In this document: positions 4,620-42,072 of the stretch, piece by piece
How positions within the stretch are numbered: the first letter of the stretch is position 1
How the letters are laid out: each line of letters begins with the position of its first letter
Virus record (IMG/VR): IMGVR_UViG_3300020231_000007
Direction: 5' to 3' (one strand)
From: a virus
DNA length: 42,072 nt
Notes under the pieces: generated by a model
The model's input: only the letters and a program-made list of their open reading frames with translations
What the model was told of the DNA's origin: nothing
Database searches by the model: none
Position numbers and translations under genes: made by a program

Positions 4620-5093
4620 ATGTCAATAGCTAAGCAGATTATTCAGGGCGCGTTACGGTTTAGGGGGTCTGATTCGTCAGCCGCCCCTGCCGATACGACG
4701 CTATATGCAGATGCCTTTCCTTATCTGCTTGGCTTGATTGCGCGATTGGAAACCGAAGGCATTACCACAGGTTTGACAGTGCCCGTTACTATTGATGATG
4801 AGCTGGCTGAGAATGTCGATGTCACTCTTCCTTTGATTTCTAACTTAGCTGTCAGTCTTCTATTTATAAGAAAGCCGATTGATGCCGATCAGTACTCTGC
4901 TGCTAACATAGATAAAATTAACCTCAGCGCAACTTATGGAAACGCCGGCGTTATACCACAACAATTATTTCCAACGACTACGCCCAAGGGTGAAGGGAAT
5001 TTCACTAGCCCATGGCGTCCTGAATTCTTTTCGAATCCAGATGCGGTGCTTAATAATCAGAACGGCGTGATTACCATCGAAGGTGACTGTTAA
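4620..5093 (+). CDS. Head-tail adaptor, P22 gp4-like
   Basis: 157 aa. The N-terminal ..IIQGALRFRG.. and C-terminal P.G.GN.....FF motifs resemble P22 gp4 (166 aa), and the position after the coat module matches. Confidence 0.65.
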   Translation: MSIAKQIIQGALRFRGSDSSAAPADTTLYADAFPYLLGLIARLETEGITTGLTVPVTIDDELAENVDVTLPLISNLAVSLLFIRKPIDADQYSAANIDKINLSATYGNAGVIPQQLFPTTTPKGEGNFTSPWRPEFFSNPDAVLNNQNGVITIEGDC

Positions 5094-8000
5094 TGCCACG
5101 AATAAGTGATCTAAATAAAGTAACAGAGCTTAATGATACTGATCTGTTTTTGATTCAGTTGGGCAACGGTCCTAGTCGGGCTATCACCTTTGCCGATCTT
5201 CAGTTAGAGATATTGATGGGTGGCGGTGGCGGTGGCGGCAACATGACGTTTGTTGGCTCGACTCCTGTTACTGTTGGCTTCTTCCCTGTATTCCAAGACA
5301 CGAGCGGAAACAATTACGAATCTAGCGTTGTATCATCCAATCAGATAGTCACGAACGCGGGCGACATTGCTACCAATACATCTTTGATATCAAGCCTGCA
5401 AACACAGGTCGCACTCAAGCAGGACAAGTCACCTATCGATGGCATCAACTACGTGCTACTCAATGGTGACATTGATGCGTTAGTCATTGCGAGCACACCG
5501 GGCTTACAAGATGCATTGGATCTAAAAATTGAGGGCCCTGCTACTGCCACTGATTCAGCCATAGTCCAATACGATGGTACCACAGGAAAGCTTGCGAAAG
5601 ACGGTCCTGTATTTGGCTCTTCAACTGGCGATGCAATCCTGTTAGAAGATGTGAGCGGCAACCCTGGTCTACCGGCTGTTGATGGATCTCAGTTAACTAA
5701 TCTACTTCAAGAAGTACCATTATCTTATTCGTTCAATACGTCTGTATCTGCCTCAGATCCTGGCCTGGGTTTTGTATCGCTTAGTAGTGCTGATCCAGAT
5801 CTCGCTGACACAATGTTCATCTCTACGCAAGATCGTAGGGGTGCAGACATGTCGGAGTTGATAGATCAGCTCGATACAAACTCTAAAATATTCGTTGCTA
5901 ATGACAGTGATTCAACTTTTTCGGTGCTGTACAACGTCACTGGCAAGCCTGTATTGGCCGGTAATTTTTACACTATCAGTATCTTTTTTGTTGGCACTTC
6001 ATCTCCTGGTCAACCTTCATCAAATGACAGCATGTCTTTAACGATCGACAACAGCGAAGCTCTTAATCGTCGAATAAACGAGGAAGCAAGCAGCAAGATA
6101 ATTCCTGGCAGCGGTGGTGCGCTTAGCATTGATTCTCCCGGTGTTCCTCCCGGTGAATCTTTTAGTGTTACTGCGGGTAAAGCTAGAATAACCAACATTG
6201 ACACTACACAAACCGATGTTAACTTCGGTCCGTTCAATGGCGTAACGATAACGACAACTACTGACACAGCTTTATTATTTATTAATAGCTCTGGAATACT
6301 TGTTCAAAAAGAAGCGCCATCCCCTAACGATATGCGCACACTTGCCTTGCTGGGGTTTGCAACCAAGGATCCGACCACAGGATTATTAGTTTTAGTTGGA
6401 GAATTTCCCCCATCTGTTTATCAAACGTATGCCCATATATCCGATATTGGTTTTCTTATTTCTGGTGCTGCCGATTCAACTGCTAGGATCGATGATGCCG
6501 AAGTCGCCGATACTTCTTTCCAGAGATTTGCAGGCAAAGGTTATTCTTTCCTAGGGAATCTAACTACTGATGTAAACGCACCAAGCGAGATTGATATACC
6601 TGCGCTAAGCCCAACAACATTTCGAACTTATTTATTTGACGGCGTTGTTGAGAATGTTATCTACTCTGGTTTGGGCACTGATACTTTAATTGATCCAACT
6701 GTTTTTGATAACTTGTCAGGCGCACTGGTTACGATGCCAGGGAACAACAGTCAATCCCAGATAATAAGGGTGTTCTGGCAGCCGAACGCTCTCACAGGTC
6801 CAGAGATTAGGATCATCCATGGCCAGGAGTTGTTTGCTAATCTAGCCGAAGCGGTGAATGGCTTAGCGTCATACTTTCCAGTCATCCCAAGCCAGGTTGA
6901 ATTAAGCTCGATTGACTTGGGCGGAATTGTTGTCAGGAAAGGTGCTAGTGACTTCACTGACACAGGCCATGCGGTATTTTTTAGACGCTCGCAGATATCC
7001 GGCGGCGGTGGTGGATCCGTGCAACAGTCGATGCAAGACACCTATCAAAATTCTTTGCAGCCTCAGATCACAACAGCCGTTGGTGATGGAGCCATACAGT
7101 TCAAAGATGGGCAAGCAGATGATTCGCTAGCTATCTTTGAGATACTCGATGAGAATGACACGGTAGCGCTTAAGGTAACTGGAGCGGGTGTAACAACAGC
7201 TAGGGGTCTAGACAGTGTAAACACCGGCGTAATCTTTATGAGTGGCCCTGTTACCCTTGATACGGTGACCACTGTTGATATCCCGGCTATCGATGGGTTA
7301 ATAATTAATGGTTATGACGACTATTTAAATATACTAACAACAGAAGTTAAGTTTCCTGGTCAACTTGGTTTTACTATTCCCAATTTAGGAACCGAACAAG
7401 ATACCTATTTATTCATAGATAGCTCTAGCAATTTACAAACTCAGAATACATCACCAACGCCAGCGCAAAGACGTACCAACGTTTATTTCGCTAGCACTCT
7501 GAACAATACGAATACAGCAGAGATTCTAGCTGTTCTAAATGCTCCGGTGGTGGCTGGCAATGTTGCGGAATCTTTCAAAGATCGGGAAAATTTCCAAGGC
7601 ATATTAGGAGACGGTGGTGGTGTAGAGCAAACTTTTGATACTGGTACAAACGGCTTGCTGGCTATGGAAGTTGGCCAGCTAGACATCTACTTAGCAAATG
7701 TGAATTGGCATGCATCAAAGACTAACCCCAACACTACTGCTTTTATAGCCCAAGATCCTGTCGTATTTAATTACATGTTACAGGACGGTAGTCTATCGGG
7801 TGGTGCGGTCACCTTAATTGAGCCTGGCAGTTATGATGTCGGTGGGGTCAAGACGACTATTCCGGGCAACAATGCGCGGTCTACTATCCAGTACATTTGG
7901 AAGTTGATTGACGGATCTCACATAGTTCAATTTGGCCAAGACTTCTATACCGATTTCGATGATGCCTTAAACGCGGTAGCGCTCGATCGACAATTGCGAG

Positions 8001-10447
8001 TTACTCCCGACATACTATTAGCTTTTGGTATTGAGCTTGCCGCGATCGTTATTAACAAAGTAGCAACTGATCTAGCCGATCCGACTGAAGCAGCTATAGT
8101 GCAAATAGGCGGTGGTGGAGGCGGAAGCGGTGGTGGCGCTGGTTCTACTACCTACACTGGACTAACGGATACTTCATCTGTAGCGGGTACTACTGGCGCA
8201 GTAGTCTTGTGGGATAACCCTTCAGAGACTCTTCTAAACAGCGAGATAGTTTTCAACGGAACTGCTGATTTCTTCAGACTTCAAGATCTAACTTCGATCG
8301 TAACTGATTCGTTATATATCGGGGCAGACAACAATGCTCTCAACATTGCCAACGACAATAACTGTGTTCTCGGAAACGAGGCAGCGGACTCGATAACGAA
8401 TGTAGGGACTTTGACGGCTTCTGGTAATAGATCAGCAACCTCATTATCAACTGGCACGGGATTCACTGTCCTAGGCTATGAAGCTGCTCTAAACGTTGTT
8501 ACCGCAACTAATAGTGTTGCATTAGGTGTCGGTAGTTTTGGACTACCCAGCACGTTCAACACGTCCAATTCAGTTGGTGTTAATAATTTCAGCGCTATCA
8601 CTTCAGCCACTAATTGTGGAATATATGGAAATGCATTAGCGGGCCCAGCTGGCGCTATCACTGATTATCTTAATATCCATGGGATTATACAGGCTGAGTT
8701 AGTAGGGACTGGTACGGTAGTCATAGGTGGCGCTGTCAACACTAAACCTGCTGATACCCATTGGAGTTTACAGTTAGGATCGACTGATGGCGTGTTAGGT
8801 CTCAACTCATTGACGAACACACAAGAAGGAACCCTATCACCTAATTTTGTCGATGGGGATTTGTGGTACAACAATGAGATTGATGAATTTAAGTTTCGTC
8901 GAAATGGAGCAACTGAAGAACTATTGTCTATTAGTGGTAATGGTGTCACTGATTCTATCATGACGTGGGATGCCTCCGGCAACCTGCAAAATACTGATTT
9001 TAAATATACTGACGGTAATGGATTTACATTATTTGAAACTGGCGGATTAAATAACGAGTCTTTATATTTTGGTGTTAACAATAATCAAGGATTATCGACA
9101 GTTCCTAAGAATACAGCTTTTGGTCATCAAGCTTTGCAGTCTGTTACGGCTGCTAGTTCTCTGGTTACTGCGGTTGGTGGTAATGCTGCTGCGTCCTTAA
9201 CAGCTGGTTCAAGCGGGGTCTTTATTGGCGAGTTTGCTTTAAGAAACACCACAGATTCTAATCAATCTGTTGTTGTAGGTTCTACTATCTCATCAATGCC
9301 TGATCCGTTTGCTGACTCTATTTCAATCGGTTATCGGAACTTTTTTAGTGTAACTGATTCAACCAAAAATATTATCATAGGGCATAACATAGCGGGGCCC
9401 GTTGGGATTGTTTCAGATTATCTAAACATTCAGCAAACAATCCAAGCTGATACATCAAACGATTCGGTAACGATTGGCGATGCAATAAACGTAAAACCAA
9501 CTAATACACATAGATCATTAGCATTAGAGTCTAACACTCAAGTTCTTGGTCTTAACTCTCTAACGAATGCGCAAGAGTTAACAGCTAGCGCAAGCATTAC
9601 AGAAAGGGATATTTGGTATAACTCTGACCGGGATAAGTACAGAGTTAAAGAGGCGGGGATAATTAATGACTTGATTGCAGGTCTACCAACTAACTATATT
9701 CAATGGCAACGAGGGGTGACGTATCTATCAGGCACTACAATTAGATTACTTGCTAACACTACACCTATAATTTGTCGAGATGACACAGACATTTTTGATA
9801 TTATACTACCAGGAAATCAAACGGTTGATAGAACTAATATTGGAGTTAACGGTTTGGATGTTGGGCCAATCACTGGCGATACGATGTATGATTTTTATGT
9901 TATTGCAGATACAACGGGCGTGAAGGCAACGGGTTGCTTGATGGCGCAACGCGGCCTAGTCCCTGTTTTACCGACCGGTTACGATGTTAAAAGATTTCTA
10001 ATAGCACTTCCTACAAATGCTAGCAATAATTTCATACCGTTTGTGGCAACGTATATTGGTAATGCATATAATGTTACCTATAATGCAGCCGCTACTTCTC
10101 GGATTATTTTAGATGGTGGACAGGGGGTTACACCGACGGTAGTGAGCGCGGAATTCTCAACTGTTGGCGCTCCTATGATACCCACCGCCATTAACGTCAA
10201 GTTGCAAATGACAGCCGAATTTACAACGGCGGCGGCTGGCGACGAAGCATACCTATTGCGCGATGATTCAAACTTCTCTATTGGTACAAGTGGTAGTTTT
10301 ATTAAGCCGGGATTTGTAGGAACACAAGCAGTTGAGAAAATTATAAATATAACTAATGCCAATAATCCGACGTTTAAATATAATTTGAATAATTCTAGCG
10401 CTTCGTTAAATCTCTATTTTGATTCCTACGATTTTTCACTGAGGTAA
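5093..10447 (+). CDS. Giant modular tail fibre (1784 aa)
   Basis: TAATG overlap with the upstream gene. The N-terminus (MPRISDLNKVTEL..D.F......G....ITFADL) resembles phage fibre anchors. There are three poly-Gly linkers, two different internal tandem domain duplications, YadA-head-like N.[VA].G repeats, and a distinct C-terminal ~250-aa domain. Confidence 0.85.
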   Translation: MPRISDLNKVTELNDTDLFLIQLGNGPSRAITFADLQLEILMGGGGGGGNMTFVGSTPVTVGFFPVFQDTSGNNYESSVVSSNQIVTNAGDIATNTSLISSLQTQVALKQDKSPIDGINYVLLNGDIDALVIASTPGLQDALDLKIEGPATATDSAIVQYDGTTGKLAKDGPVFGSSTGDAILLEDVSGNPGLPAVDGSQLTNLLQEVPLSYSFNTSVSASDPGLGFVSLSSADPDLADTMFISTQDRRGADMSELIDQLDTNSKIFVANDSDSTFSVLYNVTGKPVLAGNFYTISIFFVGTSSPGQPSSNDSMSLTIDNSEALNRRINEEASSKIIPGSGGALSIDSPGVPPGESFSVTAGKARITNIDTTQTDVNFGPFNGVTITTTTDTALLFINSSGILVQKEAPSPNDMRTLALLGFATKDPTTGLLVLVGEFPPSVYQTYAHISDIGFLISGAADSTARIDDAEVADTSFQRFAGKGYSFLGNLTTDVNAPSEIDIPALSPTTFRTYLFDGVVENVIYSGLGTDTLIDPTVFDNLSGALVTMPGNNSQSQIIRVFWQPNALTGPEIRIIHGQELFANLAEAVNGLASYFPVIPSQVELSSIDLGGIVVRKGASDFTDTGHAVFFRRSQISGGGGGSVQQSMQDTYQNSLQPQITTAVGDGAIQFKDGQADDSLAIFEILDENDTVALKVTGAGVTTARGLDSVNTGVIFMSGPVTLDTVTTVDIPAIDGLIINGYDDYLNILTTEVKFPGQLGFTIPNLGTEQDTYLFIDSSSNLQTQNTSPTPAQRRTNVYFASTLNNTNTAEILAVLNAPVVAGNVAESFKDRENFQGILGDGGGVEQTFDTGTNGLLAMEVGQLDIYLANVNWHASKTNPNTTAFIAQDPVVFNYMLQDGSLSGGAVTLIEPGSYDVGGVKTTIPGNNARSTIQYIWKLIDGSHIVQFGQDFYTDFDDALNAVALDRQLRVTPDILLAFGIELAAIVINKVATDLADPTEAAIVQIGGGGGGSGGGAGSTTYTGLTDTSSVAGTTGAVVLWDNPSETLLNSEIVFNGTADFFRLQDLTSIVTDSLYIGADNNALNIANDNNCVLGNEAADSITNVGTLTASGNRSATSLSTGTGFTVLGYEAALNVVTATNSVALGVGSFGLPSTFNTSNSVGVNNFSAITSATNCGIYGNALAGPAGAITDYLNIHGIIQAELVGTGTVVIGGAVNTKPADTHWSLQLGSTDGVLGLNSLTNTQEGTLSPNFVDGDLWYNNEIDEFKFRRNGATEELLSISGNGVTDSIMTWDASGNLQNTDFKYTDGNGFTLFETGGLNNESLYFGVNNNQGLSTVPKNTAFGHQALQSVTAASSLVTAVGGNAAASLTAGSSGVFIGEFALRNTTDSNQSVVVGSTISSMPDPFADSISIGYRNFFSVTDSTKNIIIGHNIAGPVGIVSDYLNIQQTIQADTSNDSVTIGDAINVKPTNTHRSLALESNTQVLGLNSLTNAQELTASASITERDIWYNSDRDKYRVKEAGIINDLIAGLPTNYIQWQRGVTYLSGTTIRLLANTTPIICRDDTDIFDIILPGNQTVDRTNIGVNGLDVGPITGDTMYDFYVIADTTGVKATGCLMAQRGLVPVLPTGYDVKRFLIALPTNASNNFIPFVATYIGNAYNVTYNAAATSRIILDGGQGVTPTVVSAEFSTVGAPMIPTAINVKLQMTAEFTTAAAGDEAYLLRDDSNFSIGTSGSFIKPGFVGTQAVEKIINITNANNPTFKYNLNNSSASLNLYFDSYDFSLR

Positions 10448-20424: not shown

Positions 20425-20540
20425 ATCAAAACACCCTGCATCTTATCCAGGATGCTAATAGCTGCCACCAAAACAATCAGCACAACAACAGCAATAGTCA
20501 TTTTTACGATAGTGTCGATTTCATCTTTTCTGTCATTCAT
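20421..20540 (-). CDS. Hidden 39-aa single-TM protein
   Basis: Sequence MNDRKDEIDTIVKMTIAVVVLIVLVAAISILDKMQGVLI. Below the track cutoff. Translationally coupled on both sides. Confidence 0.5.
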   Translation of the reverse strand: MNDRKDEIDTIVKMTIAVVVLIVLVAAISILDKMQGVLI

Positions 20541-22259: not shown

Positions 22260-22727
22260 TTAGAACGGTATATCGTCGTTGAAGTCCTCATAACCCGCAG
22301 GCGCTGCTGGTGCCTGATTGGCATTACCTTGTGCTTGAGGTGCGCTTTGCTGCTGTACTGGAGCATGCCCGGCCCCTGATTGACTCTGGTCACCTCTAGA
22401 GTCAAGCATCTGCATTTCATTAGCGACAATCTCAGTAGACCATCGATCGTTCCCATCTTTATCCTGCCATTTTCTAGTTTGAAGCTTTCCTTCGACATAA
22501 ACTTTTGATCCCTTCTTCAGATACTGGCCAGCAATGTCAGCCAATTTGTTGAAGAAAATAATTTTGTGCCACTCAGTTTTTTCCTTCTTCTCGCCGGTCT
22601 GCTTATCCTTCCAGGTCTCGGAAGTTGCAATTGATATATTGGTCACTGCACCCCCACTAGGCATATACCTAGTTTCTGTATCCTTCCCCAAAACCCCCAC
22701 TAGTATTACTTTATTTACTCCCCTCAT
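22260..22727 (-). CDS. ssb: Single-stranded DNA-binding protein
   Basis: Canonical OB-fold N-terminus ([40 protein letters not shown]), a G/Q/P-rich linker, and an acidic tip DDIPF. Confidence 0.95.
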
Positions 22728-23368
22728 TTTACTACCTCTCCGACAAAATATTCGTTTCTTAAAATGTCTATTTTAGTTTTCTCTATAAGCCCCCTAAACA
22801 GAGCTACCCTGGAATCAATCATCTGATACTCTTCTTTGAAATCTTCGGCGTAACAACGGTGAATAAATAACTGTTTACCTTCTGGGAATTCAGGGCAGAA
22901 ACTAATGAAGTCTACCCACTCTCTATCTGTGATCTTCAGGTTACTAGATAGCTGCCACTTGTATTTGGGGTCGAATGCTTGCTTTCGTATTACGTCATAA
23001 TGGGTGGATGGTAGAACGGATTTAATCTCGATCAGTCCGTTATCACCAACCAGCCCATCAGGCGAGCAGCCAATATCACCAAATTCAAAAAAACCACCAT
23101 TACCAACATCACAAAACATTTGTTGCTCGTATGCCATTCGTGCAAGCGGCTCTTGTTCGTGACCGCGCTCCATGTGCTCGTTCGAATAGCCCGAAGAAAC
23201 CCCGTTGCCAGTAATCTGCTCGATAGCGATAGATACAGCGTACTTCTTAGCAGGCTCCCCAAATGCCTTGCCATAGTTCGCCATGATTTTAGAAAAAGCA
23301 CTCCCAGTCATCTTGCCCACTCTTAAAGCGAGCCATTCATCTGTGTTCTGCTCAACATCATGAAACAT
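22724..23368 (-). CDS. YqaJ-type (lambda Exo-like) recombination exonuclease
   Basis: Motifs Q.TDEWL.LR.GK.TGS, G...E, CSPDGLV....LIEIK and Y..Q.Q are typical of the PD-(D/E)XK YqaJ family. Confidence 0.85.
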
Positions 23369-23864
23369 TAGCTAGCTCCATTATTTCCGCCGCATGCTCT
23401 GTGCTGACTGTCATTCGTTCAGTTACTTTGTGTAAATTACCATCACGTTTGTAGGCTGCGATGGCATTATCCCAGGCCTTAGTATTTGGCGTCAGTTCGG
23501 GTTTGCTCATCTGAGGAGGTTGTGGGCTTATACGCAACCCTTCCACCGTGTCACGCCCAAATCTGACGTTACAATCGACATATACTGTAACTGGCTGCTG
23601 TTTCCAATCATCGATATAATGAGAGTTACAAAGATCCTTCATGACCTTGCTATTGTGGGCATTGAGTATCATGGGCTTTAACTTCTCTCCCTGCCTCAAT
23701 TCCTGCTCAACAAAATACGCGGTATTGAAAGAATCCTTTGTCTTCTTTGTTCTGTCCGCTTCTAGTGAGACATGACTGATAGTTAAAATTGTTGGCCCGA
23801 CGATATCAGCCGAGCTTAAGTATGGTGAATTAAATGCTTTTCTGTAATGCGTTTTATCGTTCAT
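23358..23864 (-). CDS. Conserved phage protein upstream of the exonuclease (168 aa); candidate annealing or ssDNA-binding partner
   Basis: I take the second ATG (MNDKTHY..), 2 nt after the upstream stop. The track's 23915 start would overlap the upstream gene. Pattern ..SPYLSSADI.G...LTI..V.......K....F.E.......KPMILN..N..... ..W....V.VY.D..V.F....V.GLRI. Confidence 0.55.
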   Translation of the reverse strand: MNDKTHYRKAFNSPYLSSADIVGPTILTISHVSLEADRTKKTKDSFNTAYFVEQELRQGEKLKPMILNAHNSKVMKDLCNSHYIDDWKQQPVTVYVDCNVRFGRDTVEGLRISPQPPQMSKPELTPNTKAWDNAIAAYKRDGNLHKVTERMTVSTEHAAEIMELANVS

Positions 23865-23868
23865 TAGC

Positions 23869-24096
23869 TTACCCCAGGTTCCGTGAAATGCAAAATATTC
23901 TACTTTTTTTCTCACAATCTAAACATGTTCCTATTCGCATAACTTTTACATCTTCAGGTTTTGCCCATTGAGAAAAATCATCGTCATATGACGGGTTTAT
24001 TAATATAGCTCTGGCGACTGATTCAGCCGAAACAACAGCGCTATTCATAGCTTGAAATTCTTCGTTAACATCTTGGCTTATCAAGTACAAATTCAT
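23869..24096 (-). CDS. Hypothetical protein (75 aa)
   Basis: ATGA-type overlap with the upstream ORF. The N-terminus MNLYLISQD......MNSAVVSAES...A resembles a common small phage family of unknown function. Confidence 0.55.
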   Translation of the reverse strand: MNLYLISQDVNEEFQAMNSAVVSAESVARAILINPSYDDDFSQWAKPEDVKVMRIGTCLDCEKKSRIFCISRNLG

Positions 24097-24696: not shown

Positions 24697-24726
24697 ACTA
24701 TACTATTGTATGAGTGATACAGTCAA
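24697..24726 (-). promoter_or_regulatory. Internal leftward promoter with 17-bp dyad operator (site 1)
   Basis: Minus-strand reading: TTGACT-18 nt-TATAGT. The dyad TTGTATGAGTGATACAG (24706-24722) fills the spacer. Confidence 0.6.
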
Positions 24727-25745: not shown

Positions 25746-26115
25746 TCTTCTCCTTTATTAGTAGTTCTGGGTTTTCGTAAATGCTGCCTATGACCTCAAC
25801 GGTACGCGGCCAGTCAGCAGTTTTAAAATTAAAATTATTCGACCATTCATTCATATCTCTAACAAACTCAGCATCAAAACTAGCGCTCGGCTCATGCCAG
25901 ACAACTTTACATATTCTCCCAGACGTATTAGCAAATAGTAATAGATCGCCTTCACAAATATCTTCACCATTCTTATCTTCTAGTCCTGTGTACTGTTCTG
26001 CTGTTAACCCGTTTCTAACTTGCTCCCAGAACCAATCTCCTCTAGTAACCGAATCCCAAGTGATAAACTCTTTATCCTGTGGTACCCAAGCCCGATATTT
26101 AGTTGTTCGCATCAA
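25732..26115 (-). CDS. YopX-family protein
   Basis: KYRAW...., QYTGLEDKNGEDICEGDLL and VIGSIYENPELL are hallmark YopX motifs. Confidence 0.85.
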   Translation of the reverse strand: MMRTTKYRAWVPQDKEFITWDSVTRGDWFWEQVRNGLTAEQYTGLEDKNGEDICEGDLLLFANTSGRICKVVWHEPSASFDAEFVRDMNEWSNNFNFKTADWPRTVEVIGSIYENPELLIKEKIDEH

Positions 26116-26791
26116 TCTTCCCCTTCATCTTCTTCATTGCCTGGTCTATAGTCTCACCTTTTTCTGGATGCCAGGAAACGCACCCATGCTCGTTATTGTA
26201 GATACTCCCACCCGCAGAGTCACCGAAAAATTGTATATCACAAGCAGGGCACTCTTCTCTAAACCTATCTACAAATGACTGCATGGTTGGCACTTCAGGT
26301 TTTTCACATTTCAGAAAACCATCAAGAATCGCAAGAATGTTGCATGTCCCTGCTGCGTATATTTTACGCTGTTTACGAATACATTTACCTTTTTTATTTA
26401 TGAATTCGATGTATTCTATTTTTATGTTTTCGTCATAGTGGTATTCATCCATGTACGGGTTTTCAAGATTGTCTTGGATGCCTACTAGAACCTCCGTTAG
26501 CTCATCATCTTCATCAGGCTCAAGAACTCCCTGCTCTATGGACACAACTTCAGAGTATTTCTTTTCAAGCTCTGTAATCTTTTCGGCTATAGCAGCATAG
26601 ATTTTATAATTGGTACGCTGGCCACACATGTATTGAATCGATACCGAATCAAACACATCATTTTTAAAAACTATTCTTACATCGGATTCCGTAAGACTGC
26701 TTTTAACCTTAACCTCTAACTCCTTATCCTGGTTGACCATGTATCCATAGATAGCAGTAGTCTTTTTATTCTCATCGATCAGTATTGTCAT
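26099..26791 (-). CDS. Hypothetical protein (230 aa)
   Basis: AAGGTGG RBS. No family recognised. Confidence 0.65.
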   Translation of the reverse strand: MTILIDENKKTTAIYGYMVNQDKELEVKVKSSLTESDVRIVFKNDVFDSVSIQYMCGQRTNYKIYAAIAEKITELEKKYSEVVSIEQGVLEPDEDDELTEVLVGIQDNLENPYMDEYHYDENIKIEYIEFINKKGKCIRKQRKIYAAGTCNILAILDGFLKCEKPEVPTMQSFVDRFREECPACDIQFFGDSAGGSIYNNEHGCVSWHPEKGETIDQAMKKMKGKIDANN

Positions 26792-27128: not shown

Positions 27129-27320
27129 CTAACCCCTCTCGTTAATTAATTTACCAGCCGAATAAACCATAACCCTAAGCCTTCCATTAGCCGCTCTAAC
27201 CTGATTGACAGTGATTGGCAACTGATCCTCAGTCACTTCAGAAAACCACTCTTGGGCAGCCTTGAGCGTCTTAATATCGTGATTGGTTTCTGTGCATGAT
27301 GATCCTCTAGGGCATTGCAT
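27129..27320 (-). CDS. Hypothetical protein (63 aa from MQCPRGSSC..; track version extends to 27371)
   Basis: AAGGAG lies 10 nt upstream of the ATG at 27320. The longer version overlaps the hidden ORF 27322..27492 by 50 nt. Confidence 0.5.
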   Translation of the reverse strand: MQCPRGSSCTETNHDIKTLKAAQEWFSEVTEDQLPITVNQVRAANGRLRVMVYSAGKLINERG

Positions 27321-27321
27321 A

Positions 27322-27492
27322 TTATTTGGTCTCCTTAAACTTCTTCGGTTTAAAATATTTCTTCTGCTCAACTTCTATTCGAGCATTCAATTCTTTATTT
27401 ATACTAGACTTTAAAACAACCAACTCATCATTAGTACACCAGTTAATCAGTTGCTTACTCTTAGTCCAGAATGTTTTTCTTAATTTGTCCAT
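27322..27492 (-). CDS. Hidden 56-aa ORF (MDKLRKTFWTKSKQLINWCTNDELVVLKSSINKELNARIEVEQKKYFKPKKFKETK)
   Basis: Below the track cutoff. AAAGG RBS. Its stop lies 1 nt before the ATG at 27320. Confidence 0.45.
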   Translation of the reverse strand: MDKLRKTFWTKSKQLINWCTNDELVVLKSSINKELNARIEVEQKKYFKPKKFKETK

Positions 27493-27996
27493 TATTTACC
27501 TTTGGATCAGCCATAGTTCTGCCTTTACTCCCTTCTTGATATACCCACAGGCTTAGTTTATTTCTCTTAACTAGAACCGTGGATCAAGCATTATGGGATT
27601 CAACTCCAACCACACTATGTGGCTTCAATGTAGAGTGCCATGTTGCAAAGGCTAAACAGTTGCATGGACTTTCGCTGCCTTATATCCTCCGAGACAAGAC
27701 GTTTGCATTATGATGACTCTTGATGCCTATTCTCACCAAATCACCGTTACATGTTAAATAGGGGCTTGTAGCTCTTGCCTGATTGTTATTTTGAGAGCAT
27801 TAAGGCGAAAGTATCCATTGCTCTTAAATTCAGATAGTTCCAAAATGGAAACGACTGATTATCGAATAATGACTAGCAAGTTTTAGGAGGATTAATAGGA
27901 TTTGAAGCTGGAAGGATTTGTGGTATTATTTCCCACAGCTTGGTTGCTATTAACCTCGTAGGCTTGCCGGCCAATGATCGAGGTTTTTCTAATTTA
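27493..27996 (-). ncRNA. About 500-nt non-coding, hairpin-rich stretch inside the dense leftward operon (function unknown)
   Basis: All three minus-strand frames are full of stops, and only antisense artefact ORFs appear on the + strand. Hairpins, written as minus-strand sequence at + strand coordinates, include AGCCACA-TAG-TGTGGTT (27609-27625), CCATG...CATGG, TGTGG-GAAATAATA-CCACA (27918-27936) and ACCTCG..20 nt..CGAGGT (27953-27984). Confidence 0.4.
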
Positions 27997-28191
27997 TTAC
28001 TTTTTCTGATCTTTGTCTATTTGTTTGTATCCCCACTCAAACATATTAAATGCACACTCTTTGCAGTATTCCTCTTTCTGACTGTCATCCATCTGACCCC
28101 ACTCCTTCGCATCTACAGTTATTTCATCAGCACACATACTACCAACACAATCAGTTCTTACATAAACCTCAATTGTTATCTCCTCACCCAT
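27997..28191 (-). CDS. Cassette A small Cys-rich acidic protein (64 aa from MGEEITIEVY..; track start 28203)
   Basis: GGAGGA lies in the conserved leader. It ends ..KQIDKDQKK with a double stop TAATAA, shared with cassette B. Confidence 0.6.
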   Translation of the reverse strand: MGEEITIEVYVRTDCVGSMCADEITVDAKEWGQMDDSQKEEYCKECAFNMFEWGYKQIDKDQKK

Positions 28192-28192
28192 T

Positions 28193-28375
28193 TCATCCTC
28201 CATTGCCTGTATTGGCTACTTTTTTTTCAACTCTAAATAAAGACCATCGCCCATCTTTGAGCCAGAAATCACCAAAGCAATCAACATATAACTTTACTGT
28301 TTGGCCGCTCACTACATCAGTAAACCGAGTCTCGACAAAAGTGAGGCTAAAATAACTTTTCAATAACCGTTTCAT
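28193..28375 (-). CDS. Hypothetical protein (60 aa), preceded by leader copy C
   Basis: Leader TATACAGGCAATGGAGATTACGAAATG. The 3' end overlaps leader A. Confidence 0.55.
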   Translation of the reverse strand: MKRLLKSYFSLTFVETRFTDVVSGQTVKLYVDCFGDFWLKDGRWSLFRVEKKVANTGNGG

Positions 28376-28406
28376 TTCGTAATCTCCATTGCCTGTATAA
28401 AATCAG

Positions 28407-28619
28407 TTAATACCCTTCAAATTCTGGTATCTCGTCAAATTGCTCTTGAGTCATTAAAACAGGCTCTAGTACTGGCATACCCTCATCAGACTCAATATGT
28501 GAATCAAACCAGTGAGACATATCGTTTAATACGCCATCTAAAGTGTCTACGTAATATCTGTTTCCAGTAGATTCTTTATCTTGATAAACTTTATAAAACA
28601 CCTTCGTATGTTTGCTCAC
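28407..28619 (-). CDS. Hypothetical acidic protein (70 aa, GTG start)
   Basis: GAGGA lies 6 nt before the GTG. Confidence 0.5.
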   Translation of the reverse strand: MSKHTKVFYKVYQDKESTGNRYYVDTLDGVLNDMSHWFDSHIESDEGMPVLEPVLMTQEQFDEIPEFEGY

Positions 28620-28640
28620 AATTAATCCTCGCTGGTTAAA

Positions 28641-28886
28641 CTAATCTCTACCTTCATAATATTCGCAGCGGGTACACTCCCAAAGCTGCGCATGAGGGGG
28701 TTTATTTTGCTTCATATCATGCCCACCAACGCAATAAACGTCATAGTGATATGAGATGTTTGTGGTGAATTTGAAGGTCTTAAGGCAGCTCAAGCAGTCT
28801 TGTTCATTGTCATCTTCGTACCCTTGGCCGTCATCATGAATAATTTCGATCTCACATTTACAATATGGACAGTGCACGTCTGACAT
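28641..28886 (-). CDS. Double zinc-ribbon protein (81 aa from MSDVHCPYCK..)
   Basis: GGAGGGG lies 3 nt before the ATG at 28886. Cys pairs CPYC...CLSC and C..C. Confidence 0.6.
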   Translation of the reverse strand: MSDVHCPYCKCEIEIIHDDGQGYEDDNEQDCLSCLKTFKFTTNISYHYDVYCVGGHDMKQNKPPHAQLWECTRCEYYEGRD

Positions 28887-29064
28887 ATCCCCTCCGATTA
28901 AACAACAGCCACAGAAATCCATGACTAATTATTGAGCCGATTAGCTGGGAAACGATTTGAAATGTTAGGAAGGTTCTTGCTATACTTGCCGTAGGTCCGG
29001 CGGGGGTAGTACTTTCCTTTTGTTTTCAAACTGCTTCCGACGCAAACCGGACTTGACTAACTTA

Positions 29065-29214
29065 TTACTTTTTCTGATCTTTGTCTAGCTTGGCTTTAAT
29101 AATATCAGGCCAGCTGTTTAGCTTTATCTTAAGCCCGTCAGTGTATTGGACCTCTACGCCAACCAGCCCTAGACATATAATATAAAACCCTAAACAAAGT
29201 ATTACTCTCATCAT
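29065..29214 (-). CDS. Cassette B hidden 49-aa protein with N-terminal hydrophobic or signal-like segment
   Basis: Sequence MMRVILCLGFYIICLGLVGVEVQYTDGLKIKLNSWPDIIKAKLDKDQKK. It has the same 25-nt leader and the same 31-nt 3' block (DKDQKK, TAATAA) as cassette A. Confidence 0.55.
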   Translation of the reverse strand: MMRVILCLGFYIICLGLVGVEVQYTDGLKIKLNSWPDIIKAKLDKDQKK

Positions 29215-29238
29215 TTCATCCTCCATTGCCTGTATTAG

Positions 29239-29412
29239 TTAAACTATTGCTCTTTTAATGTCGTTATCTCTCTGAGCATCAGTCATTGATTCCCATCGAT
29301 CAAATTCAAAGTTATGCTGATCAAGCGTTTTTTGATTCTCTTCACAGCATTCTTTGCAGTAGCCTTCATATATCTCTTCAGATTCAAAACTACATTGAGG
29401 GCAATCAAACAT
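29239..29412 (-). CDS. Zinc-ribbon protein (57 aa from MFDCPQCSF..), preceded by leader copy D
   Basis: Leader AATAGAGCAATGGAGAATGAAATG. Cys motifs CPQC...CKECC. The track start at 29439 overlaps the upstream gene. Confidence 0.55.
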   Translation of the reverse strand: MFDCPQCSFESEEIYEGYCKECCEENQKTLDQHNFEFDRWESMTDAQRDNDIKRAIV

Positions 29413-29428
29413 TTCATTCTCCATTGCT

Positions 29429-29659
29429 CTATTCGTCAAACTTTAAAGAAGCAGGATAATTCAAAGCAAGCCAAGCAATGCACAATTCTTTGAACTTCAC
29501 TTTGTCTATTATTCCAATTTGATCGACGTACACAAAGACTTTATTTTTTCTGCTAACGAATTGAATATTACTTGATGAATCTCTAACACCAATAAATTTA
29601 TCATTAGTATCTGTGATGTACTCAAGAGTGTCTTTATGTATCTCTGTAACGTCACCCAT
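29429..29659 (-). CDS. Hypothetical protein (76 aa)
   Basis: AAGGTGAAAG then ATG, inside the upstream gene end. Confidence 0.55.
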   Translation of the reverse strand: MGDVTEIHKDTLEYITDTNDKFIGVRDSSSNIQFVSRKNKVFVYVDQIGIIDKVKFKELCIAWLALNYPASLKFDE

Positions 29660-29903
29660 CTTTCACCTTCTCAGCAAGTTGATCTATCTTAATACTCAGT
29701 GTTGCAATTATCCCCAATAAGGGTTGGTAGACTTCGCTAGCAATGTAAGAAGCTTGGTCAGCAGTAAAGGAAGCATTACATTCGAGATCATTAGCAAGCT
29801 CTCTAGGGTTCGGCATACATTCAAATACTTGCGCTGTACTACATATCTGGCAACCAACACCTAGCAAACTATCCTTCGTCGAGCAATCGCATCTAAACTT
29901 CAT
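29652..29903 (-). CDS. Hypothetical Cys-rich protein (83 aa)
   Basis: Packed operon ORF. Confidence 0.55.
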   Translation of the reverse strand: MKFRCDCSTKDSLLGVGCQICSTAQVFECMPNPRELANDLECNASFTADQASYIASEVYQPLLGIIATLSIKIDQLAEKVKDG

Positions 29904-29928
29904 CTTCAGTCATCCTGTTATCTTTTTG

Positions 29929-30324
29929 TTAAATGATATTATTTTCAACCCACGATCTCATCCTTACCCATCGACCTGACGGAGCTTCGTCGCGGTAGGG
30001 ACACCATTCGTCATTCAGATAAACAATTTCCATTGCCAAAGCTTCTGAAATATTAAAAGCTTTAGCAATGTCGGTAGATTCATCAGGGTCAAGATTTGAC
30101 ATATCAATACCGCGAGCATTGCCAACAACCCCAAGCGCGCAATATTCACCGTCAGCTTCAAGTGCATGAGCTATTAAGCTCTTTACCCGCATTTTATCCA
30201 TGCTGTCCGCTAACTCAGTCAGTAGAGCTTGCCCTCTTTTACCTCTGATTCCTGCCTTTACAGCTCCCCGCCAGCGAATCAGCTCCCAATTGTCTAACTC
30301 TTCACTGTATCCGCTTCTGCTCAT
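29929..30324 (-). CDS. Conserved phage protein of unknown function (131 aa)
   Basis: MSRSGYSEELDNWELIRWRGAV...IRGKRGQA.L.EL...D....K.LIAH.LE..GE.CA.G.VG.ARGIDMS..DP matches a widespread phage family I know only as hypothetical. Confidence 0.7.
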   Translation of the reverse strand: MSRSGYSEELDNWELIRWRGAVKAGIRGKRGQALLTELADSMDKMRVKSLIAHALEADGEYCALGVVGNARGIDMSNLDPDESTDIAKAFNISEALAMEIVYLNDEWCPYRDEAPSGRWVRMRSWVENNII

Positions 30325-30494: not shown

Positions 30495-30587
30495 TGGGGC
30501 GGTAGATGGGATTCGAACCCACCCGATATCATATTGCCCAGGGCCATCATATCGCTTGGACTATTAAGCTATTAAGCCACTACCGCC
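30495..30587 (-). tRNA. tRNA-like element: perfect acceptor stem, canonical T-arm and encoded CCA, but no canonical D or anticodon arms
   Basis: Minus strand: GGCGGTAGTGGCTTAATAGCTTAATAGTCCAAGCGATATGATGGCCCTGGGCAATATGATATCGGGTGGGTTCGAATCCCATCTACCGCCCCA. The acceptor is GCGGTAG/CTACCGC, with U8, T-arm GTGGG-TTCGAAT-CCCAT, discriminator C and CCA. The body contains the tandem GCTTAATA x2 and a 31-nt hairpin flanked by ATATGAT x2. I could not place a 5-bp/7-nt anticodon arm in any register. Confidence 0.5.
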
Positions 30588-30599
30588 ATTAAATCGTTA

Positions 30600-30845
30600 T
30601 TAGCCAACATCAACCCAATCATCTGCCAGCATGTCAGTCTGCGAGGCAAGCCAGGGCACTAGCGACTTGGGAGCCGCTTCGTTGTCTGTCTGCAAACCCG
30701 TAGTATCAATAAAAATATACGGGCTAGTCATCTTGCTGTTTTCGTCTGGCACCTGTAGCTCAATAAAAATACCTTTGCCGTTCCAGCCTTCTCTTGCTAC
30801 TTTTCGACCGGCCTTTAGTTCATGTATTGCTTCACCAAAATTCAT
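30600..30845 (-). CDS. DUF2829-family protein (the family that includes Thoeris anti-defence Tad2)
   Basis: MNFGEAIHELKAGRKVAREGWNGKGIFIELQ ... WLASQTDMLADDWVDV is the characteristic DUF2829 signature. AGAGGA RBS. Confidence 0.75.
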   Translation of the reverse strand: MNFGEAIHELKAGRKVAREGWNGKGIFIELQVPDENSKMTSPYIFIDTTGLQTDNEAAPKSLVPWLASQTDMLADDWVDVG

Positions 30846-37651: not shown

Positions 37652-37840
37652 TCAATCCGCATAAGCATAAGTATTAATTTCACATCCGCTTATAACTAGA
37701 ATAGAATCATCAGCGAATGTCCATTTAGTGCTTTCGTTTTCAACATCCTGATCAATATCAATAGCTATATCATCAGCTTCATTCATCATTGCGTTAGTAT
37801 TGTCTTTATGAAAACTTACTATCATTTCTGCTTTGTTCAT
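37652..37840 (-). CDS. Highly acidic 62-aa protein
   Basis: By my count 14 D/E versus 3 K and no R. It is the first gene after the promoter at 37878-37906. Confidence 0.55.
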   Translation of the reverse strand: MNKAEMIVSFHKDNTNAMMNEADDIAIDIDQDVENESTKWTFADDSILVISGCEINTYAYAD

Positions 37841-37877: not shown

Positions 37878-37906
37878 ATTATGTACTGTATCACTCATAC
37901 AGTCAA
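37878..37906 (-). promoter_or_regulatory. Promoter with 17-bp dyad operator (site 4)
   Basis: Minus-strand reading: TTGACT-17 nt-CATAAT. The dyad is CTGTATCACTCATACAG (37886-37902). Confidence 0.65.
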
Positions 37907-37936
37907 TGGTTTTAATTAATTACTGCTGGCTTAGTA

Positions 37937-38226: not shown

Positions 38227-38255
38227 ATATTAGACTGTATCACTCATACAGTAAA
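38227..38255 (-). promoter_or_regulatory. Promoter with 17-bp dyad operator (site 5)
   Basis: Minus-strand reading: TTTACT-17 nt-TAATAT. The dyad is CTGTATCACTCATACAG (38235-38251). Confidence 0.65.
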
Positions 38256-38285
38256 TAGATTAGATGAGATAAATTAAAAGAGTTT

Positions 38286-41312: not shown

Positions 41313-42072
41313 GCCAAGATAATGCCAACGTGGACATGAAGCCACCAGCCACAAGCGAAGAATCAAACGAGATCCAGCGTTGGGGTGAGCAGCTTGGCAA
41401 GGATTACTATGTGCTCGAAGGCCAAAGGGATCGAGGCGATAGGAATCTAAGATTTGCCCATATCCCCGGGGGTCAGTGGGAAGGCAGTGACGAGCAGCGA
41501 TGGCAGAATCGTATTCGAATGGAGTTCAACAAAGTTTCATCGGCTATTCACAAGTTCAATGGTGAATCCCAATCAAACAGAAAAACTGTCACATATAAGC
41601 CAGCCACCGATGAGGGCAAAGACACTGCACGAATACTGAACGGACTATTCCGCAAAGATTTCCGGCAATCAGGTGGCGTCGATGCCTATGATGATTCGAT
41701 AAACGAAATGGCAACGGCAACTGTTGGCGCCTATCGATTGACAACAGAGCGTTCTGATCCATCTGACATTGAAAGTGATAAGCAAAAAGTTGTTTGGAAG
41801 TTCATTCCCAATTCTTACAAGACTGTAGTTTGGGATTCAAACGCTCGGGAAATGTCAAAGAAGGATGCTCGTTGGGGAACTATTCTCACTCCTTACACTA
41901 ACGATGCATTCGAGGAAGAATTCCCAGGGTTTCAGGTTGCCAGTGTCGGCCTGCCAGAAAAGAATGACCAGTTCTCATTGACTCGTAACTTTCGATGGCG
42001 CTCCAACGATACAATTTATGTTGCTGAGCGTTACGCAATTAAGAAGAAGAAGAAAACAGCATTCATCTATGA
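41309..42072 (+). CDS. Portal protein, N-terminal part (continues at nt 1..1549)
   Basis: The ATG at 41309 overlaps the terL stop (ATGA). The frame stays open to the window end, which is why it is absent from the ORF track. It is in frame with 2..1549 through the 141-nt overlap. Confidence 0.9.
   Translation, partial: MSQDNANVDMKPPATSEESNEIQRWGEQLGKDYYVLEGQRDRGDRNLRFAHIPGGQWEGSDEQRWQNRIRMEFNKVSSAIHKFNGESQSNRKTVTYKPATDEGKDTARILNGLFRKDFRQSGGVDAYDDSINEMATATVGAYRLTTERSDPSDIESDKQKVVWKFIPNSYKTVVWDSNAREMSKKDARWGTILTPYTNDAFEEEFPGFQVASVGLPEKNDQFSLTRNFRWRSNDTIYVAERYAIKKKKKTAFIY
41932..42072. repeat. Second copy of the 141-nt terminal overlap
   Basis: Identical to nt 1-141. Confidence 0.95.

Follow-up and report, generated by a model that had tools for sequence, protein, structure and literature searches.

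Why should two small phage genes with unrelated bodies share both of their ends? The question is raised by the IMG/VR virus record IMGVR_UViG_3300020231_000007, a stretch of 42,072 nucleotides (the window), in which two minus-strand genes, here called A and B, begin with the same 25-nucleotide leader and end with nearly the same 31-nucleotide tail. The initial annotation of the window read this arrangement as the product of cassette swapping by recombination, or possibly as a shared translational operator. The elements concerned are the following.

28189-28213, minus strand: leader of gene A (L_A), AATACAGGCAATGGAGGATGAAATG, with the Shine-Dalgarno (SD) sequence GGAGG, a 5-nucleotide spacer and the ATG of gene A
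29212-29236, minus strand: leader of gene B (L_B), identical to L_A at 25 of 25 positions, intergenic, following the TAA stop codon of gene D
27989-28019, minus strand: tail of gene A (T_A), TAGACAAAGATCAGAAAAAGTAATAAATTAG, comprising the last codons, for (I)DKDQKK, the double stop TAATAA and 5 more nucleotides
29057-29087, minus strand: tail of gene B (T_B), identical to T_A at 30 of 31 positions
27997-28191, minus strand: gene A, encoding an acidic protein of 64 amino acids (16 Asp and Glu versus 8 Lys and Arg) with four cysteines arranged as CxxxxC…CxxC
29065-29214, minus strand: gene B, encoding 49 amino acids, with an N-terminal transmembrane helix followed by a YTDGL…GWP motif

The shared ends exceed what chance would produce. 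In a self-BLASTN of the whole window, the leader repeat has an E-value of 3.7e-6 and the tail repeat one of 6.8e-8; no other internal repeat of the genome reaches their scores, and only a 141-bp terminal overlap outscores them. With up to 3 mismatches allowed, the 24-nucleotide core of the tail is found twice and no more, versus no match in 100 shuffles. The initial annotation had described a 25-nucleotide leader, a 31-nucleotide 3' block with one mismatch that encodes DKDQKK followed by TAATAA, and a Cys-rich acidic protein of 64 amino acids as cassette A, and each of these descriptions is borne out.

The bodies between the shared ends are unrelated, as had also been stated. Local alignment of the two bodies gives a z-score of about 0 relative to 1000 dinucleotide shuffles, and the proteins belong to different families. 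Gene A is a member of Pfam family DUF7167 (E 4.8e-10, which passes the cut-off), with a match that covers residues 7-59 of 64, and three PHROG profiles end at residues 50-59. Because the tail block starts at codon 58, the KDQKK residues are an appendage outside the DUF7167 core. Gene B had been called a hidden gene, and in this respect the initial annotation does not stand: the ENA, Logan and JGI gene callers alike call it, and an exhaustive HMMER search of 1.84 billion representatives yields 7 homologues of 41-59 amino acids (E 1.7e-6 to 3.8e-4). Its length of 49 amino acids and hydrophobic N-terminus were correctly described.

A hydrophobic helix at the N-terminus and an invariant core, D-G-L…W, are common to the B family, whose members all differ in their C-termini. 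The family pattern is M-x-R…YTDGL…GWP, and conservation stops before the shared tail. At the other end, gene B opens with ATG-ATG-AGA: the ATG of L_B is directly followed by a second ATG, with which the family start M-(I/L)-R aligns. From this alignment, it looks as if the leader ATG had been placed ahead of a native B start. Relatives of B occur on four phage contigs (L020-L023), whose translated similarity to the window is confined to positions 29086-29217, that is, from the ATG of B to the first base of the tail block. The flanks of these relatives are unlike those of the window and unlike each other, and both the leader core and the tail core are absent from the four contigs.

The homology of both families, A and B, therefore halts at the block edges. 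Because homology ends there and because the B relatives carry other flanks, flanks and bodies have separate histories. At the level of sequence, these comparisons demonstrate a mosaic of flank and body, which is what a model of cassettes held in a slot would predict. No paralogy is detectable among the 11 small proteins of the neighborhood. A possible paralogy of A and D through a common YCKEC was considered, but the match comprises 7 residues with an E-value of 0.02 and is unsupported.

The mosaic is part of a larger repeated layout, to which the following elements also belong.

28373-28399, minus strand: diverged leader of gene C (L_C), TATACAGGCAATGGAGATTACGAAATG
29410-29433, minus strand: diverged leader of gene D (L_D), AATAGAGCAATGGAGAATGAAATG
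27811-27824, minus strand: decayed leader, AGAGCAATGGATAC, in the spacer after gene A, with no usable open reading frame (ORF) behind it
28193-28375, minus strand: gene C, 60 amino acids, no family match, preceded by L_C and ending inside L_A
29239-29412, minus strand: gene D, 57 amino acids with CPQC…CKEC, no family match, with L_D before it and L_B after it
28641-28886, minus strand: gene for 81 amino acids, with the ribosome-binding site (RBS) GGAGG and without the leader motif
28407-28619, minus strand: gene for 70 amino acids, with a GTG start and without the leader motif
28887-29064, minus strand: noncoding spacer of 178 nucleotides after gene B, weakly similar to the first ~150 nucleotides after gene A
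27493-27996, minus strand: noncoding spacer of 504 nucleotides after gene A, holding the decayed leader, in an operon that is otherwise tightly packed

Along the direction of transcription, leader D and gene D are followed by leader B, gene B, tail B and the 178-nucleotide spacer, and then by the 81- and 70-amino-acid genes, leader C, gene C, leader A, gene A, tail A and the 504-nucleotide spacer. A two-gene layout, consisting of a leader variant, a gene of ~60 amino acids, a leader, a second gene, a tail and a spacer, thus occurs twice at a distance of 1023-1068 nucleotides, with four unrelated bodies. The two diverged leaders had been recognized in the initial annotation, as had the decayed copy, whose position was given about 5 nucleotides away from where it lies. 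The decayed copy has an 11-nucleotide exact match with L_D. It is situated ~170 nucleotides past the stop codon of gene A, and the RBS of the 81-amino-acid gene is 178 nucleotides past the stop codon of gene B, which is the same relative position.

We consider it somewhat probable that an expression slot was duplicated locally, that its ends from leader to tail were kept, and that unrelated genes were inserted into it by recombination. The slot would consist of the leader (RBS and ATG), a short gene, the tail (seven codons, TAATAA and the start of the spacer) and the spacer, and its duplication would have taken place within an early accessory operon. The copies would now be filled by the unrelated A (DUF7167) and B (a small membrane protein). 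These bodies would not have diverged from a common gene; perhaps recombination with other phages set them between leader and tail, or they were joined illegitimately, at the ATG on one side and close to the 3' end on the other. The leader would be the translation-initiation region for four neighboring genes, and the tail would contribute the KDQKK C-terminus along with the stop codons, and perhaps also a weak internal promoter. We infer the slot duplication, the recombinational replacement and the use of the blocks by the recombination system of the phage from the following observations. The clustering of the leaders, the repeated layout and the weak similarity of the spacers suggest a local duplication as the origin of the flanks. 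For the bodies, membership in different families whose homology ends at the block edges, together with the other flanks of the B relatives, argues for placement by recombination and not for divergence.

The near-identical blocks of 25-31 nucleotides would be long enough as substrates for recombination by a phage exonuclease and annealing protein, and the following genes are found 5 kb from the locus.

22724-23368, minus strand: YqaJ-family recombination exonuclease (E 2.6e-18)
22260-22727, minus strand: SSB gene, adjoining the exonuclease gene
23358-23915, minus strand: gene for 185 amino acids, adjoining the exonuclease gene and co-conserved with it in other contigs

Together these genes presumably form the phage's own recombination module, which would be able to use short homologies. 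Phage Rad52-like recombinases act on short and diverged sequences and drive the mosaicism of lambdoid phages (PMC3945230). The blocks could mediate replacement of a body or deletion of the 1.0-kb segment between copies: the repeats are direct, so recombination between them would delete ~1.0 kb and leave D-A or D-B. Junction repeats between unrelated small ORFs recur in other accessory arrays of phages (see below), which also counts in support of a duplicated and refilled slot.

Relatives of the locus were sought in several collections. With positions 27200-30000 as the query, neither megablast nor blastn yields a match in 50,697 phage records, among which the phage has no close relative, and tblastn of A against these records gives no match. 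No related locus was found in IMG/VR through gene A or a 326-amino-acid gene, and protein searches with A and with a neighbor of 230 amino acids return only self matches. A 131-amino-acid neighbor has many homologues, the closest of which (65%) belongs to an unrelated, integrase-bearing phage. Among 55 contigs fetched through NinG and the exonuclease, the genes in common with the window are only those for recombination, NinG, portal and terminase, and none of these contigs shares the region at 24-32 kb. The exact tail core has no match in IMG/VR viral contigs or in 185,579 GTDB genomes. The leader pattern is likewise absent from the GTDB genomes; it has 2 viral matches in IMG/VR and 11 in JGI metagenomes, all of them single-copy and unrelated to the window by tblastx, with several inside coding sequence, and these are chance matches.

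Several observations weigh against the duplicated and refilled slot. Exchange between genomes was never observed, in that no relative carries either block, and the IMG/VR, GTDB and JGI collections contain no partner genome with the same boundary blocks around other DNA, although unsampled ones may exist. A or B is carried by four assemblies, all with the identical arrangement, and neither a deletion nor a swap is on record. The tail is present in only two copies. Similarity between the spacers after A and B has a z-score of 2.2-2.9 and is matched by 16-37 of 1000 dinucleotide shuffles (p ~0.02-0.04), which is poor support for duplication of a larger unit; the initial annotation had seen the similarity continue into the downstream noncoding DNA. 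The 185-amino-acid protein, a candidate annealing protein, has no family name and no PDB relative, and its single-sequence structural model, at a pLDDT of 41, is unusable. Finally, the blocks are 97-100% identical and the adjoining spacer is barely alignable, and near-perfect blocks beside poorly conserved spacer fit purifying selection on functional sites equally well. The blocks could be crossover zones of recent events, functional sites under selection, or both. Of the cassette swapping proposed in the initial annotation, then, the improbable flanks, the unrelated bodies and the mosaic all stand, and swapping as an active system is unproven.

Selection on function is the core of the foremost alternative, which we regard as rather unlikely. 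It holds that the blocks are regulatory elements kept identical by selection, with the leader acting as a translation operator or enhancer that a phage or host factor recognizes and that co-regulates four genes, and the tail acting as a sigma-70-type promoter that reads into the spacer or the next gene; the common ends would then carry no information on gene exchange. The leader is built as AATACAGGCAAT-GGAGG-ATGAA-ATG, with a strong SD sequence at the canonical distance from the start codon, and it contains a ATACAGGCAAT part. Across the leader copies, GGAG(G) is separated from ATG by 5-7 nucleotides, and GCAATGGAG(G) is situated 5-7 nucleotides before the ATG of four unrelated genes. In addition to the SD sequence and AAATG, there are 11-12 conserved upstream bases that pairing with 16S rRNA leaves unexplained, which favors an operator or enhancer. 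So does a resemblance to the start-associated sequences that, in Cluster K mycobacteriophages, are found ahead of genes from a variety of families (PMC3203893), and one repeated leader described below is spread over at least 120 viral stretches, showing that repeated leaders can be functional consensus sites.

The distribution of the leader points the other way. The 9-nucleotide core GCAATGGAG is found exactly four times in the window, always on the minus strand and between 28198 and 29427, where ~0.3 occurrences are expected in 84 kb. These four exact cores lie in 1.25 kb, and with the decayed copy included the cluster stays within 1.6 kb, all of it on the same strand. The motif is missing from all of the other 35 gene starts of the operon, where a mixture of AAGGGG, AAGGAG and GAGG sites is used. 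The leader is therefore a local feature and not a genome-wide signal. Its absence from the public collections that were scanned, apart from chance matches, also speaks against a selected regulatory site. The translational operator that the initial annotation offered as its other reading is thus not favored as a genome-wide device, whereas an ordinary role of the leader in translation initiation is very likely.

Conserved structure is also lacking in the leader, which is a further point against a regulatory element. The four copies align without consensus pairs, and each folds no better than shuffled sequences, so the candidate of an RNA element in the leader was rejected. An unstructured leader suits an open initiation region. 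A scan for sigma-70-like sites (9/12) detects no promoter-like site overlapping any leader copy, and the inverted repeats include neither leader-tail complementarity nor an antisense partner in the spacers. L_A is also coding sequence, for the C-terminus NTGNGG* of the upstream gene C including its TGA stop codon.

Other neighboring genes also have leader strings in common that are much shorter than that of A and B. The string GGGGAAGATTG precedes the start codons at 26112, 25742 and 25511 (minus strand), and the minus-strand starts at 20540 and 20424 share GGTGTTTTGAT-ATGA. The sequence CAGGCAATGAAGAAGATGAA at 26124-26143 resembles the leader and is located inside the 230-amino-acid gene.

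The tail comprises the last seven codons of the gene, for (I/L)DKDQKK, as well as TAATAA and five more bases, and is unstructured. The case for a promoter is made by T_A, which spans an exact -35/-10 geometry of sigma-70 type (TAGACA-17-TAAATT, 9/12), a site of a kind found in just 0.3% of the 31-nucleotide windows of the genome. This match was noticed post hoc, after several ideas had been tried. The sole difference between T_A and T_B affects the fourth base of the putative -10 hexamer (TAAGTT); the A2 and T6 required in the scan stay intact, but T_B drops to 8/12, below threshold. The region as a whole has no excess of promoter-like sites over shuffled sequences (18 versus 18.2). The match is consequently treated as a lead only, although the tail may possibly provide a weak internal promoter, judging by its hexamers. 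A regulatory function also gives no reason for two unrelated families to lose homology exactly at the block edges.

Other functions were considered for the tail. A -1 or +1 frameshift at CAG-AAA-AAG would, in the -1 case, add three residues and end at the TAG that closes the block (judged by eye), and no feature supports it. By eye, the tail does not meet the consensus of an IHF site or of an attC-like site. No inverted repeats are found at the tails, and no conserved hairpin or terminator-like site follows them. The 504-nucleotide spacer after T_A has a predicted fold somewhat more stable than those of shuffled sequences (z -2.8) and matches no Rfam family. As a source of decayed copies of neighboring genes it yields no significant tblastn match. 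It may represent decayed cassettes or an RNA. A weak stretch resembling a tRNA T-arm is present in this spacer at 27593-27611.

A stronger form of the exchange hypothesis supposes that the blocks are dedicated boundaries of a cassette slot. Small ORFs for host takeover or anti-defense would be captured, swapped or dropped by the phage exonuclease and annealing protein through 25-31-nucleotide homologies that double as a 5' RBS and a 3' promoter. We consider this version unlikely. If it were true, the locus would be a counterpart, at the level of translation, of the PeSL system of T4, located beside a Tad2-like anti-defense gene.

Another alternative, which seems quite improbable, is that the common ends act as peptides. 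An upstream in-frame ATG would give the N-terminus MEDEM and the tail gives the C-terminus DKDQKK, and such ends might be tags for targeting, degradation or packaging. In T-even phages, unrelated internal proteins share a leader that targets them to the capsid. The reading frames of A, B and D include the upstream ATG (MEDEM, MEDEM and MENEM, respectively), and the JGI caller starts there, giving proteins of 68, 53 and 61 amino acids. In both families the conserved core stops short of the tail, as expected if the tail were an appended tag, and the internal-protein loci of T-even phages have been cited as analogous polymorphic loci (PMC2839356). However, the upstream ATG has no usable SD sequence, and its counterpart in leader C starts a mini-ORF of 5 codons in another frame. 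The ENA and Logan callers use the downstream ATG. Moreover, selection on six amino acids would permit synonymous changes, yet all 21 coding bases of the tail are identical and the identity runs past the stop codons. Only two proteins carry the tail.

Simple tandem duplication with ordinary divergence and no replacement of bodies, which the initial annotation had named as the outcome that would overturn its proposal, is very improbable: the local clustering of all leader copies on one strand, the repeated two-gene architecture and the weak similarity of the spacers agree with it, and duplication probably did produce the flanks, but the bodies have no nucleotide or protein similarity, they belong to two conserved families (DUF7167 and the YTDGL membrane family), and blocks of 97-100% identity beside unalignable bodies are incompatible with uniform divergence.

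The phage that carries the slot is represented by a complete genome of 41,931 bp. Because positions 1-141 are an exact 141-bp overlap with 41932-42072, the genome is circularly closed; its G+C content is ~42%. Its genes include those for a P22-type coat protein (~30% identity to the closest phage records), a portal protein and a large terminase, as well as NinG, DUF1367, the YqaJ-type exonuclease and SSB, and this content makes it a lambdoid/P22-like podovirus, one not described before. At least three samples yielded assemblies of this phage (ENA ERZ27251160, Logan SRR6057436 and JGI 3300009102), and identity over the shared parts is 100% and 99.985%. An assembly artifact was considered as the origin of the repeats and is ruled out by the agreement of four independent assemblies and by repeats shorter than the assembly k-mers.

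The locus is within a long minus-strand operon of small accessory genes that extends from ~31.8 to 19.9 kb. Just upstream in the same operon, a gene at 30600-30845 (minus strand) encodes a Tad2-like anti-Thoeris domain (E 1e-24), and at 37652-37840 (minus strand) a precomputed annotation contains a weak AcrF2 match. Given the Tad2-like gene and the weak AcrF2 match, the accessory operons look like arrays of counter-defense genes.

Some additional features of the genome were encountered. A tRNA-like sequence at 30498-30587 (minus strand), with the canonical T-arm GGGTTCGAATCCC, is located in a 275-nucleotide gap between the Tad2-like gene and the 131-amino-acid gene. Rfam assigns it to tRNA-Sec with 27 bits and an E-value of 0.024, below the gathering threshold, and ARAGORN reports it at relaxed settings only, with an odd anticodon loop. 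The inverted repeat ACTGTAT-N5-ATACAGT occurs within TTGACTGTATGAGTGATACAGT in three copies, at 38234-38256 (minus strand), 37885-37907 (minus strand) and 24707-24724 (opposite orientation). These copies overlap TTGACT, a -35-like hexamer, and by their sequence look like a putative set of operators and promoters for a phage repressor. The repeat is close to a LexA box, but with 9 central bases instead of 8. The structural module contains an ORF of 1784 amino acids (5093-10447, plus strand), a size that is unusual for a 42-kb podovirus; its sole PHROG match is partial, resembles a tail fiber and covers residues 770-1064.

Phages shuffle small accessory genes, many of which serve in counter-defense, and whether they do so by illegitimate recombination or by recombination at short homologies is still debated. 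For this debate, the locus offers a compact and statistically clean case, in which two independently conserved genes are held within the same leader and gene end and the joints coincide exactly with the limits of each family's homology. If exchange were demonstrated, the idea of a regulatory element as a recombination handle would cover lambdoid podoviruses in addition to T4-type myoviruses, and translation signals in addition to promoter-terminator elements. A simple scheme for inserting genes into such phages would be suggested as well. With one genome and two copies, the present state is suggestive, but not yet a system.

Among known systems, the PeSL elements of T4-type phages were the comparison drawn in the initial annotation. 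PeSLs are composite elements of a consensus sigma-70-like early promoter, with an AT-rich region upstream, and a GC-rich stem-loop terminator; they are intergenic, dispersed and present in many copies (Arbiol et al. 2010, PMC2839356; PMC4122927). Their exchange was demonstrated by comparison of sister phages and by detection of mini-circles (PMC2839356; PMC4122927). As with PeSLs, which have been proposed as homology patches where the recombination system of the phage inserts, deletes and replaces genes, short near-identical regulatory sequences here flank small ORFan-type accessory genes in a hyperplastic region. Unlike a PeSL, the 5' block is an RBS without promoter or hairpin, and the 3' block is partly coding and promoter-like in one copy only (T_A). 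There are 2-5 copies, all within 1.6 kb and not dispersed, and no exchange was observed. The logic of the comparison therefore holds, whereas the promoter, the stem-loop and the dispersal do not apply at the leader.

The start-associated sequences (SAS) of Cluster K phages are 13 bp in length and conserved from one subcluster to another, with ~15-20 of them per genome, distributed along the entire non-structural arm (Pope et al. 2011, PMC3203893). They are asymmetric motifs with an SD core, located 3-7 bp before the ATG of non-structural genes, and some of their positions are unable to pair with 16S rRNA (PMC3203893). The leader of the window is similarly an asymmetric motif with an SD core a few base pairs before the ATG of genes from different families. 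In contrast to SAS, it has four copies in 1.25 kb and none elsewhere in the genome, with only chance matches in the databases scanned, and it is paired with a 3' block, which SAS lack. As for integron-type cassettes, there is no attC-like inverted repeat at the tails and no integrase among the called genes or the proteins scanned.

Closer parallels in arrangement were met while scanning the 55 comparison contigs. In IMGVR_UViG_3300025879_000154 (L056; the same is found in L057), six consecutive small genes at 6004-6830, upstream of NinG, are joined by AAACCAAAACAAAGATGAGTAA. This module encodes the C-terminus NQNKDE* of one gene and the start MSKE of the next. The 17-nucleotide core of the motif is present in at least 120 IMG/VR stretches, many of which contain it 3-7 times, and on account of this spread it is probably a lineage-wide initiation consensus without an SD sequence. 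This case shows that repeated leaders can be plain functional signals. In IMGVR_UViG_3300002225_000011 (L076), from a phage that shares the exonuclease module of the window, a ~50-nucleotide repeat, TAATATTCACTACGAACACGACATAAACCAAC…GG…ATG, precedes four successive small genes at 6006, 6664, 6925 and 7288, and it is a possible candidate for a cassette boundary that combines promoter and leader. Junction repeats in two copies occur in L062, L021 and L023; in L021, which carries a B homologue, adjacent minus-strand genes at 29-59 and 190-220 have their first 31 nucleotides in common (30/31). Like these five arrays, the locus has neighboring small ORFs with near-identical leaders of 17-50 nucleotides. 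As in L056, the leader fixes the C-terminus of the preceding gene, which L_A does for gene C. Unlike the L056 motif, the leader and tail of the window occur in this genome alone, and the tail forms a block of its own with noncoding DNA behind it.

The best conceptual fit, short of a partner genome, is a mosaic joint of lambdoid phages. As far as the account given in PMC3945230 goes, boundary or linker sequences belong to the modular theory of lambdoid evolution (Clark et al. 2001). Comparisons of different lambdoid genomes reveal exchanged segments of ~400-500 bp that are flanked by mostly longer or diverged homology (De Paepe et al. 2014, PMC3945230). The phage of the window is of the same type (P22-type coat, NinG, YqaJ exonuclease and SSB), and its joints are at or near gene boundaries; in the known systems, phage recombinases use short homologous patches. 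The two sides of a joint have different histories here as in lambdoid mosaics. Unlike these mosaics, both copies of the boundary pair are in a single genome, around genes of ~150-195 nucleotides, and no partner genome is known. In kind, the locus is an example of short regulatory boundary repeats around accessory ORFs; here the repeats comprise a translation signal and a gene end, and the carrier is a lambdoid podovirus.

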